This document shows positions 2,909 to 6,540 of a stretch of 6,540 nt of DNA, one piece after another. Numbering within the stretch: the stretch's first letter is position 1; the number at the start of each line of letters is the position of its first letter. The position numbers and the translations under genes were made by a program. The notes below the pieces were generated by a model that saw nothing but the letters and a program-made list of their open reading frames with translations, did not search any database and was not told the origin of the DNA. This DNA comes from a virus (Duplodnaviria > Heunggongvirae > Uroviricota > Caudoviricetes), in the IMG/VR virus record IMGVR_UViG_2711768000_000006; one strand, given 5' to 3'.

Positions 2909-3289
2909 ATGACCGAGCGCATAGAATTTGTTTTACCTTACCCGCCGACGGTGAACACTTACTGGCGTCGTCGTGGCAGCACATATTTTGTATCAAAAGC
3001 CGGGGAGCGTTATCGCCGGGCAGTGGCGCTTATTGTTCGCCAGCAGCGGCTGAAATTAAGCCTGTCCGGAAGGTTGGCAATAAAAATTATTGCAGAACCA
3101 CCGGATAAGCGCCGCCGTGACCTGGACAATATTCTGAAAGCGCCGCTGGATGCGCTGACGCATGCGGGGTTGCTAATGGACGATGAGCAGTTTGATGAAA
3201 TCAATATCGTTCGTGCTCAGCCAGTATCTGGTGGACGTCTGGGGGTGAAGATTTATCCCATAATGCTTGAAGGGCAGGTCAAAAAATGA
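2909..3289 (+). CDS. rusA: Crossover junction endodeoxyribonuclease RusA (Holliday junction resolvase)
   Basis: 126-aa product with RusA hallmarks: N-terminal LPYPPTVNTYWRRRG, the catalytic-region motif PDKRRRDLDNILKAPLDALTHAG, and C-terminal GGRL. Lies directly upstream of the Q candidate, as in lambdoid prophages. Confidence 0.9.
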   Translation: MTERIEFVLPYPPTVNTYWRRRGSTYFVSKAGERYRRAVALIVRQQRLKLSLSGRLAIKIIAEPPDKRRRDLDNILKAPLDALTHAGLLMDDEQFDEINIVRAQPVSGGRLGVKIYPIMLEGQVKK

Positions 3290-4107
3290 AACTGGAAGAT
3301 TTACCGAAATACTACTCCCCAAAATCCCCCGGCCTGACTGATGCATCGGCCTCAACGTCGAAAGATGCGCTGAGTATCACTGATGTGATGGCCGCGCAGG
3401 GCATGACACAGAATCGGGCTGAGATGGGGGTTTCTGCGTTCCTTGGGAAAATGGGCATTAGTATGAATGACAGAGAGCGGGCAACAGAATTGCTGACAGA
3501 ATATGCACTCAGTCGGTGTGATCGCGTGGCGGCGTTAAGAAAACTCCCGGCAGAAATAAAACCGGCAGTGATGCGTATTATGGCTTCGTATGCGTTTGAA
3601 GATTATGCCCGTAGCGCGGCGAGCAAAAAACAGTGCCCCTGCTGTCACGGAAAAAAATTTATTGAAAGCGAGGTTTTTACAAACAAGATCCAGTATCCGG
3701 ATGGTAAGCCGCCGGTATGGGCAAAGTGTACGAAAGGTGTGTATCCGTCTTACTGGGAAGAATGGAAAAAAGTCAGGGAGGTGGTAAAAGTTGCCTGTCC
3801 GGAGTGTGGCGGAAAGGGTGAGGTTTCCACCGCCTGTAAGGATTGCCGTGGGCGTGGTGTCGCCATTCATCGTGAAGAGTCGGTAAAACGTGGTATGCCT
3901 GTTATCAGAGACTGCCAGCGTTGTGGTGGTCGTGGCTATGAAAGACTACCATCAACGGAGGCATTTAATGCTATATGCGAGGTGACAAACCAGATAACAC
4001 GCGCGTCATGGGAAAAAACAGTTAAGAAATTTTATGATGCGCTGGTGACCCGGTTTGATATTGAAGAAGCATGGGCTGAGCGGCAGTTAAAAAAGGTAAC
4101 TAGGTAA
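3286..4107 (+). CDS. Putative late-gene antiterminator Q with DnaJ-like zinc-finger repeats
   Basis: 273-aa ORF whose ATG overlaps the rusA stop (ATGA). Contains CPCCHGKK plus three CxxCxGxG motifs (CPECGGKG, CKDCRGRG, CQRCGGRG). Sits between rusA and a pR'-like promoter and terminator, the canonical Q position. The assignment is positional plus motif-based, not a confirmed match. Confidence 0.6.
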   Translation: MKLEDLPKYYSPKSPGLTDASASTSKDALSITDVMAAQGMTQNRAEMGVSAFLGKMGISMNDRERATELLTEYALSRCDRVAALRKLPAEIKPAVMRIMASYAFEDYARSAASKKQCPCCHGKKFIESEVFTNKIQYPDGKPPVWAKCTKGVYPSYWEEWKKVREVVKVACPECGGKGEVSTACKDCRGRGVAIHREESVKRGMPVIRDCQRCGGRGYERLPSTEAFNAICEVTNQITRASWEKTVKKFYDALVTRFDIEEAWAERQLKKVTR

Positions 4108-4112
4108 CAAGG

Positions 4113-4140
4113 TTGATTTTTCCGGAATCTGTGGTAAATT
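4113..4140 (+). promoter_or_regulatory. pR'-like late promoter (-35 TTGATT 4113-4118, extended -10 TGgTAAATT 4132-4140)
   Basis: 16-bp spacer. The -10 TAAATT with an upstream TG resembles the lambda pR' -10. Begins 6 bp after the Q stop. Confidence 0.5.
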
Positions 4141-4187
4141 CGTTATAACGATGGGCGTTTTATGCCTGACGTTAGAAGAGTTTCTAC

Positions 4188-4212
4188 AACCCGCCGCCGA
4201 GCGGGTTTTTTA
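4188..4212 (+). terminator. tR'-like rho-independent terminator ending a roughly 65-nt leader RNA
   Basis: Stem AACCCGC (4188-4194), loop CGCCGA, stem GCGGGTT, then a T-run (4206-4211). Lies about 50-65 nt downstream of the predicted pR' start, analogous to the short terminated late leader of lambdoid phages. Confidence 0.55.
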
Positions 4213-4331
4213 TGACTGAAATCGCGTCAGTACAGTAAACGCGCTGGTGGCGGTGAATACCTGTCTTTCAGCTTGCTGGCTTTTTCGACAAGAGTTATTG
4301 GTGTGTCACGTTAACCGGAAAAGGAAAAGAC

Positions 4332-4529
4332 ATGCTAAAACAGCAGGATATGACAGAAACCGCCAGAGTGGTGTTTAATGAATTAAGCGTTACCGAACCG
4401 GCGACAGTCGGGGAGATAGCGCAGAATACTTACCTTTCACGCGAACGCTGCCAGTTAATACTGACCCAGCTGGTTATGGCGGGTCTGGCAGACTATCAGT
4501 TCGGTTGTTACAGACGCCTTCCGCAGTGA
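4332..4529 (+). CDS. Small hypothetical protein, 65 aa, possible winged-helix DNA-binding fold
   Basis: ATG with SD AAGGA 6 nt upstream. The segment VGEIAQNTYLSRERCQLILTQLVMAGLADY resembles a helix-turn-helix or winged-helix. A terminator-like hairpin overlaps the stop. Confidence 0.45.
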   Translation: MLKQQDMTETARVVFNELSVTEPATVGEIAQNTYLSRERCQLILTQLVMAGLADYQFGCYRRLPQ

Positions 4530-4540
4530 AGGCTTTTTTA
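4516..4540 (+). terminator. Rho-independent terminator-like hairpin overlapping the stop of the 65-aa ORF
   Basis: Stem GCCTTC (4516-4521), loop CGCAGT, stem GAAGGC (4528-4533), followed by TTTTTTATTT. Confidence 0.45.
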
Positions 4541-4558
4541 TTTGTGGTAAATGGGCGG

Positions 4559-4585
4559 CTGGTGGGTGTTAGGGGCACCCACCAG
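4559..4585. other. Perfect 10-bp stem-loop (CTGGTGGGTG / TTAGGGG / CACCCACCAG) in the leader upstream of the methyltransferase gene
   Basis: Exact reverse-complement arms at 4559-4568 and 4576-4585, with no T-run afterwards. A second near-palindrome lies at 4629-4647 (CTGCTTTGC GCAAAAGCAG). Confidence 0.5.
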
Positions 4586-4679
4586 CCATCTGCTCATGCG
4601 TTGGGTTCACAAGCAAACCTCAGGCCCACTGCTTTGCGCAAAAGCAGAATGAGCCTATCAGAGACAGGCTTAATGATCC

Positions 4680-5738
4680 ATGCTTAATACTGTAAAAATA
4701 TCCAGTTGTGAGTTAATCAACGCCGACTGCCTGGAATTTATCCGGTCGTTACCCGAAAATTCTGTTGACCTGATAGTCACGGACCCGCCGTACTTTAAAG
4801 TGAAGCCTGAGGGCTGGGATAACCAGTGGAAGGGCGACGATGATTACCTGAAGTGGCTGGACCAGTGTCTGGCGCAGTTCTGGCGGGTGCTGAAACCTGC
4901 CGGAAGTCTTTACCTGTTCTGTGGTCATCGCCTGGCATCTGATATCGAAATCATGATGCGTGAACGCTTCAGTGTGCTGAACCATATTATCTGGGCGAAG
5001 CCGTCCGGACGCTGGAACGGATGCAACAAGGAAAGCCTGCGGGCGTATTTCCCCGCCACAGAGCGCATTCTGTTCGCGGAACATTATCAGGGGCCGTATC
5101 GTCCGAAAGATGCCGGGTATGCGGCGAAGGGCAGTGCACTGAAACAGCATGTGATGGCCCCGCTGATTTCTTACTTTCGTGATGCGCGAGCTGCCCTGGG
5201 GATAACGGCAAAACAGATTGCAGATGCCACAGGAAAGAAAAACATGGTGTCGCACTGGTTCAGTGCCGGTCAGTGGCAGTTGCCGAATGAAAGCGATTAT
5301 CTGAAATTACAGGCGCTGTTTGCCCGGGTGGCAGAAGAGAAGCATCGGCGTGGTGAACTGGAAAAGCTCCACCACCAGCTGGTGGATACGTATACCTCAC
5401 TGAACCGGCAGTATGCGGAGCTGCTGAGTGAATATAAACATCTGCGGCGGTATTTTGGCGTGACGGTGCAGGTGCCGTATACCGATGTGTGGACGCATAA
5501 ACCGGTGCAGTTCTATCCCGGGAAACATCCGTGCGAAAAACCGGCAGAAATGCTGCAGCAGATAATCAGCGCTAGCAGTCGTCCGGGTGACCTGATTGCA
5601 GATTTTTTCATGGGGTTGGGTTCGACAGTGAAAGCGGCACTGGCGCTCGGGCGTCGTGCAATTGGCGTTGAGCTGGAGACTGAACGTTTTGAGCAGACGG
5701 TTCGGGAAGTACAGGATTTAGTCAGCCAGAACGGATGA
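4680..5738 (+). CDS. DNA amino-methyltransferase (N6-adenine or N4-cytosine), beta-class motif order, no adjacent restriction enzyme
   Basis: 352-aa ORF with motif IV DLIVTDPPYF near the N-terminus and the AdoMet-binding motif I DFFMGLGST near the C-terminus (motif IV before motif I). The long middle region contains an HTH-like segment (LGITAKQIADATGKK). No cognate endonuclease ORF is present. Confidence 0.85.
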   Translation: MLNTVKISSCELINADCLEFIRSLPENSVDLIVTDPPYFKVKPEGWDNQWKGDDDYLKWLDQCLAQFWRVLKPAGSLYLFCGHRLASDIEIMMRERFSVLNHIIWAKPSGRWNGCNKESLRAYFPATERILFAEHYQGPYRPKDAGYAAKGSALKQHVMAPLISYFRDARAALGITAKQIADATGKKNMVSHWFSAGQWQLPNESDYLKLQALFARVAEEKHRRGELEKLHHQLVDTYTSLNRQYAELLSEYKHLRRYFGVTVQVPYTDVWTHKPVQFYPGKHPCEKPAEMLQQIISASSRPGDLIADFFMGLGSTVKAALALGRRAIGVELETERFEQTVREVQDLVSQNG

Positions 5739-5778
5739 TATTGAAGAATTAATTACGCGTCGTTATTATGCGGCTCCC

Positions 5779-5854
5779 GGCCCTTTAGCTCAGTGGTGAG
5801 AGCGAGCGACTCATAATCGCCAGGTCGCTGGTTCAAATCCAGCAAGGGCCACCA
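5779..5854 (+). tRNA. tRNA-Ile2 (anticodon CAT, lysidine type), ileX/ileZ-like, with encoded CCA
   Basis: Manual cloverleaf: acceptor GGCCCTT/AAGGGCC, D-arm GCTC..GAGC, anticodon loop CTCATAA, T-arm GCTGG TTCAAAT CCAGC, discriminator A, CCA. Closely resembles E. coli ileX as recalled. By anticodon alone it could also be scored as Met. Confidence 0.8.
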
Positions 5855-5861
5855 TCACATA

Positions 5862-5938
5862 CCGCCATTAGCTCATCAGGAAAGAGCGCCAGCCTTCGAA
5901 GCTGGCTGCGCGGGGTTCAAGTCCCCGATGGCGGTCCA
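5862..5938 (+). tRNA. tRNA-Arg (anticodon TCG), with encoded CCA
   Basis: Manual cloverleaf: acceptor CCGCCAT/ATGGCGG (7 perfect pairs), D-arm GCTC..GAGC, anticodon stem CCAGC/GCTGG with loop CTTCGAA, T-arm CGGGG TTCAAGT CCCCG, discriminator T, CCA. The C1-G72 start is unusual but it folds cleanly. Confidence 0.7.
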
Positions 5939-5951
5939 TTATCTGCATCAT

Positions 5952-6009
5952 GCGTTGTTAGCTCAGCCGGACAGAGCAATTGCCTTCTAAGCAATCGGTC
6001 ACTGGTTCG
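5952..6009 (+). pseudogene. 3'-truncated tRNA-Arg (anticodon TCT), argU/argO-like; breaks in the T-loop
   Basis: Acceptor 5' strand GCGTTGT, D-arm GCTC..GAGC, anticodon stem ATTGC/GCAAT with loop CTTCTAA, and the T-stem 5' strand ACTGG followed by TTCG are intact. The expected T-stem 3' strand and acceptor 3' strand (ACAACGC) are absent and replaced by CTTTTGCGGGCCTTTTTTTT. Confidence 0.6.
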
Positions 6010-6227
6010 CTTTTGCGGGCCTTTTTTTTAAATGTCTCACAATTCAGACGGTTGACAGTTGTCTGTTTTGCGGGGAGTTTGTTAAAAGAAACTGGCATGG
6101 TGAATCCCCCTGTGCGGAGGGGCAATCAGCGAGTAGGTATATGGGATAATCGCGGATTCAGGTGCTGGTACTGAATTCACCGGGAGGCACCCGGCATCAT
6201 GCAATGGCACATAGCGCCACTCTCCAG

Positions 6228-6250
6228 CCCTCTCCGGAGGGGCTTTTCTG
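6228..6250 (+). terminator. Weak terminator-like hairpin (CCCTC / TCCG / GAGGG followed by GCTTTTCT)
   Basis: 5-bp GC-rich stem with tetraloop and a short T-rich tail, in an otherwise ORF-free region. Weak. Confidence 0.25.
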
Positions 6251-6433
6251 TGCCGGATACATCACAGTTTCTGGAACCTTAGGTACTACAGTATCAGTCA
6301 GGGTGCTATATTTTCAGATGTGATGAAAGCCTGTCAGCAGGCAGGGCGTATCGGAAATGACCCAGTAGAGAAAACGTTGACTCAGATACCGGTGCTGAGT
6401 TACCGGGAAACCGGCATCACATGACCGCTATCC

Positions 6434-6540
6434 TGAGGTGTACTGGCAATAGCGGACACTACCATTTGTTCTTTTTTTAAGCAGCCATCTGATGATATTT
6501 TTCCCTGAAGGCTGCCGGGGAGATATTCCCCAGACGAGAG
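6434..6540. repeat. Right arm of the perfect 107-bp inverted repeat (partner 1..107)
   Basis: Exact reverse complement of 1-107. Read on the minus strand it reproduces the upstream region and first 32 nt of the ORF at 76, then continues as only a 21-codon ORF (complement 6400-6465). Confidence 0.95.

Follow-up and report, generated by a model that had tools for sequence, protein, structure and literature searches.

A candidate late-gated counter-restriction cassette around an M.EcoGII-type adenine methyltransferase in a lambdoid prophage

Introduction

The N6-adenine methyltransferases M.EcoGII and M.EcoGI come from prophages of Escherichia coli O104:H4 C227-11 (Murray et al. 2018, PMC5778455). 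M.EcoGII methylates adenine in any sequence context, in double-stranded DNA, single-stranded DNA and RNA; in its native lysogen it is silent, and its constitutive expression is poorly tolerated (unstable or toxic); and its family is very large in E. coli prophages, the methylase of phage 1720a-02 being named as a close relative (PMC5778455). An anti-restriction role is the published view of M.EcoGII-type enzymes (PMC5778455, PMC12707154), and the family has found wide laboratory use as a reagent in the footprinting of chromatin and of RNA. Here we analyze a 6,540-nucleotide stretch of phage DNA (IMG/VR record IMGVR_UViG_2711768000_000006, Caudoviricetes; hereafter the window), centering on positions 4332-5738, in which a methyltransferase gene of this type is preceded by a small open reading frame (ORF) and a long structured leader. 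The window is the junction of the early-right and late regions of a lambdoid prophage.

Silence in the lysogen is a recurrent property of such enzymes. In methylome studies, prophage orphan methylases homologous to M.EcoGI or M.EcoGII give no signal in lysogens, and an M.EcoGI homologue is untranscribed in an ST131 lysogen (PMC4659465). A review pairs M.EcoGII with Mom of phage Mu, both being silent in lysogens and toxic (PMC12707154). In Mu, the mom start site is buried in mRNA structure and is opened by Com, a small protein encoded upstream (PMC6483171), and homologues of Com precede non-specific adenine methylases in Mu-like prophages (PMC3299994). A third described system is the 16S rRNA methyltransferase pair MT-A70/PNB-2 of Shiga-toxin (Stx) phages, which has a winged-helix gene just upstream of the methyltransferase gene and a terminator before the pair (Gong et al. 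2024, PMC10810198).

How does the locus in the window compare? Like M.EcoGII, its methylase has the beta-class motif order, a similar length (352 versus 349 amino acids), a helical helix-turn-helix (HTH) recognition domain and the status of a prophage-borne orphan; the published work on M.EcoGII contains no description of an upstream small ORF, a terminator or a conserved leader. Mu com-mom and the com-linked Hin1523, Nma1821 and Hia5 share with the arrangement proposed here a late, host-toxic, broad-specificity adenine modification, and in these operons, too, the gene of a small (approximately 40-65 amino acids) nucleic-acid-binding protein precedes the modification gene (PMC6483171, PMC3299994). 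There are differences, however. Com is a Cys4 zinc finger, whereas the small protein of the window is winged-helix-like and without homology to Com, having at most one invariant Cys pair (C40, C59) and no Cys4 motif; Hia5-type enzymes are of the alpha class, whereas the window methylase is of the beta class; and, unlike in Mu, the leader persists where the small ORF has been lost. The small protein is at most a candidate for binding the leader. The MT-A70 gene differs in lying near the integrase end, in its family and in its length (208 amino acids).

We consider it likely that the window carries a late-operon counter-restriction cassette, gated to late expression and built around an M.EcoGII-type non-specific N6-adenine methyltransferase. 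Earlier work already covers the enzyme, its orphan status and its HTH domain, and public databases contain the exact protein. What appears to be undescribed is the gating layout, the small gene in synteny with the methylase and, most notably, the leader, which is conserved and structured.

The methyltransferase

Judged by its sequence, the 352 amino acid ORF at 4680-5738 is of the M.EcoGII type, a prophage copy of an already characterized enzyme family. It matches the Pfam domain N6_N4_Mtase (PF01555, E = 7.9e-42, residues 29-340), and over its full length 324 of 349 residues are identical to M.EcoGII as given in Table S1 of PMC11551740; this 93% is approximate, the M.EcoGII sequence having been machine-read from a PDF, with reading errors that account for some of the mismatches. 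The elements of the cassette, in order, are as follows.

3286-4107, + strand: late-gene antiterminator Q, phage 82/21 type, containing a zinc-finger region like that of DnaJ (Antiterm, Pfam PF03589, E = 1.6e-53)
4113-4155, + strand: putative late promoter pR' with an initial-transcribed pause element
4188-4215, + strand: predicted intrinsic terminator tR' (terminator scan)
4332-4529, + strand: small winged-helix-like ORF, 65 amino acids (weak Pfam matches, phrog_331)
4516-4540, + strand: second terminator-like hairpin, P0, with a T-run (terminator scan)
4541-4679, + strand: structured leader of the methylase mRNA (44 distinct loci aligned)
4680-5738, + strand: M.EcoGII-family beta-class N6-adenine methyltransferase, 352 amino acids (PF01555)

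A first-pass annotation, made by a model from the letters alone, had recognized the beta-class order, and both the Pfam match and the motifs bear it out, with DPPY toward the N-terminus and FxGxG toward the C-terminus. The latter (FMGLG, residues 310-314) is where it had been placed, near residue 310; DPPY lies at residues 35-38 instead of 34-37, and the two motifs are 271 residues apart instead of roughly 250. The HTH-like stretch ITAKQIADATG is likewise present; it occupies residues 175-185 and falls within a weak HTH_3 match of Pfam (residues 167-195, E = 0.036). The annotation had spoken of an internal HTH-like insert. That stretch and the charged helical segment are not unusual, however, but the ordinary target-recognition domain and linker of the family (PMC11551740). 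The published AlphaFold model of M.EcoGII has a Rossmann core (residues 1-134 and 260-349), a recognition domain (160-237) that forms a four-helix bundle with an HTH, and a charged two-helix linker (PMC11551740). Our AlphaFold2 model of the window methylase places helices at 147-173, 177-184, 190-194, 204-223 and 230-255, so that the helical HTH target-recognition domain would span approximately 147-255; its confidence is moderate (pLDDT, the predicted score in the local distance difference test, approximately 70-83 over residues 160-240 and 65 overall). The predicted secondary structure is consistent with the published domain description, and residues 160-237 are nearly identical between the two enzymes.

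The closest relatives with solved structures are beta-class adenine methyltransferases (PDB 8urk/9c3u; M.RsrI, 1eg2; CcrM, 6pbd). The Rossmann core of the window methylase aligns to them in two blocks, one around DPPY and one around FxGxG (E = 7e-25 to 2.5e-18). However, these enzymes are sequence-specific and have no counterpart to its central approximately 165 residues (115-280). The annotation had held that the target specificity could not be read from the sequence. Because the enzyme is 93% identical over its full length to M.EcoGII, which is non-specific by biochemistry (PMC5778455), there is most likely no specificity beyond adenine; the activity itself is taken from the biochemistry of M.EcoGII, not of this allele. 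The assignment would thus settle the main question, that of specificity, which the annotation had left open.

Orphan status and distribution

As the annotation had said, no endonuclease lies beside the methylase in the window, where the neighbors are DUF968, RusA and Q upstream and tRNAs and STnc100 downstream. Neither is there a restriction gene next to it in Stx2a phages, phiP27, phage 1720a-02 or non-Stx prophages. A restriction partner in homologous loci had been named as the observation that would make the gene part of an ordinary restriction-modification system; among 80 genome loci, sampled at one genome per species, no endonuclease family recurs among the neighbors, and we therefore rule such a system out. 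The sole nuclease seen near the cassette is non-recurrent. It is a 409 amino acid ORF of the GIY-YIG family (L22) at 3702-4931 of phiP27, between a Q-like gene and the small ORF, and could be of the homing type and not a restriction partner.

In approximately 200 related loci the methylase always lies between Q and the lysis genes, and the relatives generally have it at the head of the late operon. Across the 80 genome loci methylase identity declines as far as 61%, in Xenorhabdus, Photorhabdus, Providencia and Morganella. The recurrent upstream neighbors are three unrelated Q families (PF03589, PF06530/DUF1133 and PF06323), DUF968, DUF1367 and RusA, and the recurrent downstream neighbors are holins, lysozyme, Rz and DUF2514; lysis genes, not tRNAs, follow the methylase in most loci outside Escherichia. 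In 14 Xenorhabdus loci a protein like Tad2 (Thoeris anti-defense 2) is encoded approximately 170 nucleotides downstream of the methylase (for example, L069:5197-6180, E = 8.5e-17), which suggests that the head of the late operon is a counter-defense slot.

The cassette of small ORF, methylase and tRNAs occurs in Stx2a phages, directly upstream of stx2 (94.5% DNA identity), in phiP27 (86.6%) and in non-Stx E. coli prophages; in phage 1720a-02 (95% DNA identity) the order is Q, small ORF, methylase, stx2A. Since the window contains no stx gene, "Stx-phage feature" is too narrow a label. A toxic methylase is carried by very many enterobacterial prophages, Stx phages included, and in the latter it shares its Q-dependent transcript with stx.

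Late promoter and terminators

In lambda, a -10-like element in the initial transcribed region causes a sigma-dependent pause at which Q loads. The window shows the same layout. TTGATT (4113-4118) is followed after 16 nucleotides by TGGTAAATT (4132-4140, an extended -10) and, after a further 6 nucleotides, by AACGATGGG (4147-4155); in a direct comparison, lambda pR' (NC_001416) reads TTGACT, 17 nucleotides, TGGGTAAATT, 6 nucleotides, AACGATGGG. From this match we take the element to be the same promoter as lambda pR', with the same -10-like element in its initial transcribed region, so that transcription would start near 4147 and promoter and pause element would function as in lambda. A consensus promoter scanner did not list the site, which has 8 of 12 hexamer matches. 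The Q gene just upstream, besides its Pfam match, also matches the PHROG anti-termination protein Q-like family (E = 6.8e-114).

Approximately 40 nucleotides further on, directly after pR', the terminator scan finds tR', a hairpin (AACCCGC CGCCGA GCGGGTT, 4188-4207) followed by TTTTTAT, in the same placement as in lambda and in locus L011. By analogy it would end the pR' transcript at approximately 65 nucleotides unless Q acts. Lysogens should accordingly contain a constitutive RNA of approximately 65 nucleotides (4147-4215), comparable to lambda 6S RNA; another analogue is the StxS small RNA described for Stx phages (PMC7547250).

The terminator that the annotation had noted before the methylase is present as well: a terminator-like hairpin (4516-4533) followed by TTTTTTATTT overlaps the stop codon of the small ORF. 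In related loci a hairpin with a T-rich tail is kept at this position (P0) despite many different stem sequences, even in loci that have no small ORF; it is absent in Providencia and Morganella. Altogether, 4000-6540 contains nine terminator-like sites, compared with 2.7 +/- 2.0 expected.

Because pR' and its pause element are followed by a strong terminator, as in lambda, everything downstream, the methylase included, would be on a Q-dependent late transcript. This agrees with the first reading, as does the view that expression is tightly gated; it looks gated at several levels.

The small upstream gene

The small winged-helix-like ORF, which the annotation had also noted, has a good Shine-Dalgarno sequence (AAGGA) and sub-threshold winged-helix matches in Pfam (TrmB, E = 0.0026; MarR_2; DprA_WH; HTH_24). 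It matches phrog_331, a family of unassigned function, with E = 1.4e-37, and its 334 homologues carry source names of the TrmB-family or DprA-like winged-helix kind. What had been missed is that it is a conserved partner gene across many genera. An ORF of 62-67 amino acids lies directly upstream of the methylase in approximately 62 of 78 genome loci, from Escherichia to Xenorhabdus, and in 108 of the 112 viral loci that bear a methylase and extend far enough upstream. Identity falls to approximately 40% while the motifs MLKxxDMT and RCQLxLTQ stay conserved. Differences are enriched at third codon positions, and a Shine-Dalgarno core of at least four nucleotides precedes 40 of 56 small ORFs, compared with 4 of 56 methylases; for these two reasons we regard the ORF as a real gene. 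In the loci where it is missing, remnants of its 3' end remain, which indicates that it was lost by recombination.

A fold search assigned no specific function to the small protein, the matches being generic and non-significant, and lambda orf-64 was rejected as a homologue, as the two do not align.

The structured leader

Between the small ORF and the methylase, Enterobacteriaceae and Morganellaceae have a spacer of approximately 150 nucleotides that contains a leader of approximately 140 nucleotides. It is far more conserved than the surrounding genes, which had escaped the first reading. Across 44 distinct loci the mean column identity is 83%. The mean pairwise identity is 81% for the leader, compared with 70% for methylase DNA, 74% for methylase protein and 38% for the four-fold sites of the methylase, and in 99.9% of 903 pairs the leader identity exceeds that of the four-fold sites. 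The leader is present also in 13 loci without the small ORF. A covariance model finds exactly one copy per locus, on the sense strand and directly 5' of the methylase. A scan of IMG/VR with exact 20-mers found 121 copies, 118 of them evaluable, and in 114 of these the methylase starts at +129 to +132 after the leader match. In the other four (L100, L138, L164 and L183) the leader is cut right after its first hairpin and an AT-rich ORF of approximately 240 amino acids and unassigned function replaces the methylase, with the tRNAs still downstream; this is a clean module swap with its breakpoint inside the leader.

No family of Rfam 15 matches the leader at gathering score, either in a search of the whole window or in one of 4500-4700 with lax filters; the best match, P26, reaches 24.2 bits against a threshold of 36 and lies on the opposite strand. 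A known RNA family is thereby ruled out, and a full-text literature search for the leader sequence returned no relevant paper.

In the window, the first hairpin pairs AUGGGC (4551-4556) and GGCUGGUGGGUG (4557-4568) with CACCCACCAGCC (4576-4587) and GCUCAU (4592-4597). It contains a perfect 12-base-pair stem, GGCTGGTGGGTG/CACCCACCAGCC, at 4557-4587; the perfect 10-base-pair hairpin described earlier (4559-4585) is real and forms the inner part of it. Further on lie a strand GUUCACAAGCA (4605-4615) that is shared by two alternative folds, the near-palindrome CTGCTTTGCGCAAAAGCAG (4629-4647), which had also been noticed and which forms an apical hairpin, P4, and the start-proximal strand GGCUUAAUGAUCC (4667-4679). 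The ribosome-binding site that had been called weak is in fact missing, there being no Shine-Dalgarno sequence in the 15 nucleotides before the methylase ATG at 4680. The four methylases that do have a Shine-Dalgarno core, in Providencia and Morganella, have it inside the basal helix of the second hairpin.

The region 4510-4700 folds with z = -4.2 (0 of 200 dinucleotide shuffles fold as well), and its minimum-energy fold in the window pairs the methylase AUG. A two-hairpin fold of 42 pairs is paired in 93.5% of cells across the 44 loci, with 11 pairs changed on both sides; when the partners are slid by 1-3 columns, at most 41.6% are paired. The second hairpin is a three-segment rod with the near-palindrome at its tip. 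At its base, GGUCACAAGCG pairs with the 13 nucleotides just before the methylase AUG, and this basal helix (4605-4615 with 4667-4679) is 92% paired across the loci and has four covarying pairs. G-U pairs occur only when the + strand is read. In the alternative fold, GGUCACAAGCG pairs instead with CGCUCAUG inside a three-way junction; the resulting helix, P3, has five covarying pairs (pair 55-81, for instance, is CG in 22 loci, AU in 8, UA in 5 and UG in 4). The mean predicted energies of the two folds (-49.8 and -51.9 kcal/mol) are approximately 2 kcal/mol apart, and the two-hairpin fold is the better supported. Two further pairings were rejected: a short hairpin immediately before the AUG (columns 125-130 with 142-146 of the alignment), which has many mismatches and no covariation, and a GCUCAU-GUGAGC helix, ruled out by eye, whose variants are uncompensated.

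Xenorhabdus and Photorhabdus loci (L046-L083) have a short leader, 76-101 nucleotides before the methylase, in which the first hairpin (GGCUGGUG...CACCAGCC) and the GUGAAAUGG block alone are retained. Because it has neither the shared strand GGUCACAAGCG nor P4, any two-state mechanism would be limited to Enterobacteriaceae and Morganellaceae.

Proposed mechanism

We propose the following sequence of events. In the lysogen pR' would fire and transcription would stop at tR' (4188-4215); polymerase that leaks through would meet the second hairpin (4516-4540). Both elements are seen, and their activity is what we infer. Upon induction, Q would modify RNA polymerase at pR' and, if the lambda paradigm holds, allow it to read through both hairpins and to transcribe the small ORF, the leader, the methylase, the tRNAs and the lysis genes. 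On this transcript the small protein would be translated from its normal ribosome-binding site, while the methylase, which has none, would have the 13-14 nucleotides before its AUG held in the basal helix of the long conserved hairpin. The nearly iso-energetic second pairing of the same strand would free the start region. Translation of the methylase would thus probably be limited or conditional; covariation backs the structure, and the regulatory effect and its trigger are what we propose. The leader may be a translational lock like that of Mu com/mom, and it probably helps to keep the toxic methylase off until lytic growth. Once made, the enzyme would modify adenines on progeny DNA, so that packaged genomes would resist, in the next host, restriction enzymes blocked by N6-methyladenine (m6A). 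Its toxicity would be irrelevant at that stage, the cell being about to lyse.

A bolder version, which we put forward tentatively, is that the leader represents a cis-regulatory RNA of a new class, which would be dedicated to methylase genes of the M.EcoGII type and act as a two-state element. Its states would be, with the same reserve, off when GGUCACAAGCG is paired with the start region and on when it is paired with the upstream strand in the three-way junction. The switch could be set by the small winged-helix protein in the manner of Com, by the methylase itself (e.g., through m6A in its own leader) or by S-adenosylmethionine (SAM) or S-adenosylhomocysteine. That the winged-helix protein plays the part of Com is a supposition by analogy, and the part would not be an obligatory one.

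Several observations weigh against this reading or parts of it. The identity on which the enzyme assignment draws is approximate, as said above, and the window allele departs from its family at one residue (Leu313, see below), so that it may be a weakened copy. M.EcoGII is active alone in vitro, so its catalysis needs no partner. The small ORF is missing in approximately 16 of 78 genome loci; because approximately one-fifth of the loci lack it while the leader persists, the small protein is dispensable and cannot be an obligatory activator. Its AlphaFold2 model, three helices, has low confidence (pLDDT 64), and the top Foldseek matches, all of them winged helices and among them RNA-binding SelB domains, include none with E <= 0.001. 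Both folds of the leader have support. The covariation comes from closely related sequences (effective number 1.43), for which the shuffle control overstates significance. The modeled accessibility of the start region is lower than in shuffled leaders by a modest amount (0.40 versus 0.51; lower in 38 of 44 loci), and a median of 20% of shuffles match or beat the real leader in occluding it. Finally, we found in the literature no published test of virion hypermethylation by phages that carry this gene.

The conserved terminator, the constrained leader, the missing Shine-Dalgarno sequence and the syntenic winged-helix protein together make the model testable by mutation. If true, it would describe a new phage riboregulator and a non-homologous counterpart of Mu com/mom, and in its bolder version it would account for the safe carriage by phages of an enzyme that acts on every adenine. 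The model would also be relevant to the passage of Stx and related phages across restriction barriers among Escherichia, Shigella and other genera.

Alternative explanations

The strongest competitor, though still an unlikely one, is that the cassette in the window is a decaying remnant, with an inactive methylase and with structures merely inherited from functional relatives. Motif I reads DFFMGLG in the window, compared with DFF[MFI]GSG in 117 of the 120 top homologues, and M.EcoGII, too, has Ser at this position. Because Leu313 (codon at 5616-5618) replaces the family-invariant Ser of the SAM-binding FxGxG, the allele may be weakened and is possibly a lineage-fixed hypomorph. Shigella genomes are known for gene decay, and Shigella is probably the host lineage of this prophage. 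Compared with E. coli relatives, a deletion has cut short the third tRNA downstream, and the last approximately 45 nucleotides of the window have no match in related prophages. On the other hand, the methylase ORF is of full length and otherwise intact, as are Q, pR', the small ORF and the leader, and the exact Leu313 protein is kept, since databases list it as a Shigella sonnei/flexneri protein with at least 997 contigs (the best match in a complete E. coli genome is 96.8%).

The conservation of the spacer might instead reflect a function as DNA (a promoter or operator of the methylase, e.g., for the small protein) or a peptide encoded in it, which we consider improbable. The invariant TGTG(R)AAAT resembles an extended -10 and repeats TGTGGTAAAT of pR', and many loci have a palindromic DNA sequence in the P4 region. 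However, the helices are maintained by compensatory changes, and only the sense strand tolerates G-U pairs. An autonomous promoter at TGTG(R)AAAT is disfavored also by the absence of transcription of homologues in lysogens and by a start that would fall inside a conserved helix. As for a peptide, a mini-ORF begins at the conserved ATG of position 4551, and in most loci it reads MGGWWVL-stop and contains tandem Trp codons. Yet it runs on in the window and differs in Providencia, and since neither its length nor its sequence is conserved (the window, L067 and L025 differ) we reject it as an attenuation peptide; it is probably a by-product of the stem sequence. A 60 amino acid ORF across the leader (4505-4687) is rejected as a gene, because one-nucleotide indels break its frame across loci; it has no Pfam match.

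Could the methylase and the small protein combine into a holoenzyme whose target is RNA (rRNA or tRNA) and not phage DNA? M.EcoGII does methylate RNA in vitro, and a different methylase, from Stx phages, is redirected to 16S rRNA by a winged-helix partner (PMC10810198). The synteny of small ORF and methylase across genera, the SelB winged helices among the structural neighbors and the tRNA genes that follow the methylase in E. coli phages would all fit. Nevertheless, we judge this very unlikely. Neither protein is homologous to its counterpart in the MT-A70/PNB-2 pair, the Stx-phage rRNA methyltransferase system of the Koudelka laboratory (BLASTP against the VT2phi_272 orthologues, E = 0.03 and 0.14, without significance), and the Pfam family differs. 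The activity of M.EcoGII on RNA is approximately 100-fold below that on DNA (V0 0.12 versus 11.1; PMC11551740, Table S3), one-fifth of the genome loci have no small ORF, and most loci outside Escherichia have lysis genes downstream in place of tRNAs.

Least probable of all is a sequence-specific orphan for epigenetic regulation of phage or host genes, for, although the central HTH (weak HTH_3 match, AlphaFold2 helices) is of a kind that often reads specific sequences and the site-specific relative M.PflMI has a similar predicted fold (SUPREM paper, PMC11551740), the near-identity to M.EcoGII extends through the recognition domain, M.EcoGII methylates all dinucleotide contexts, and a family silent in lysogens cannot maintain an epigenetic state there. 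The annotation had suggested an "anti-restriction or epigenetic module"; the first half agrees with the published view and with the counter-restriction cassette preferred here, and the second is unlikely because enzymes of this type are silent in lysogens and methylate any adenine.

Neighboring features

The remaining features called in the window are as follows.

1850-2908: DUF968/HNH protein
2909-3289: RusA
5779-5854, + strand: tRNA, anticodon CAT, annotated as Ile or Met in relatives (ARAGORN)
5862-5938, + strand: tRNA-Arg(TCG) (ARAGORN)

The two tRNA genes score 72.5 and 58 bits with the Rfam tRNA model, and the arrangement of a CAT tRNA followed by tRNA-Arg(TCG) is also found in Stx2a phages and phiP27. 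At 5953-6030 lies a third tRNA, for Arg (anticodon TCT region), which breaks off after GGTTCG and continues as a terminator-like hairpin (6004-6021) that has a T8 run. It has no ARAGORN call and scores 22.5 bits in Rfam over model positions 8-63 only; E. coli relatives have a complete tRNA-Arg at this site, with approximately 40 more bases. An STnc100 small RNA follows at 6066-6255 (123.6 bits, threshold 47), with a weak second match at 6294-6482 (21.8 bits). The unmatched final stretch of approximately 45 nucleotides (after approximately 6435-6495) may represent an insertion-sequence or rearrangement boundary. At the other end of the window, 947-1362 holds a hok/sok type I toxin-antitoxin module, consisting of a sok RNA (112 bits, Rfam) and a Hok-like ORF at 1060-1272, and after it lies an isrK-like sub-threshold match (1281-1362; 25.8 bits against a threshold of 50).

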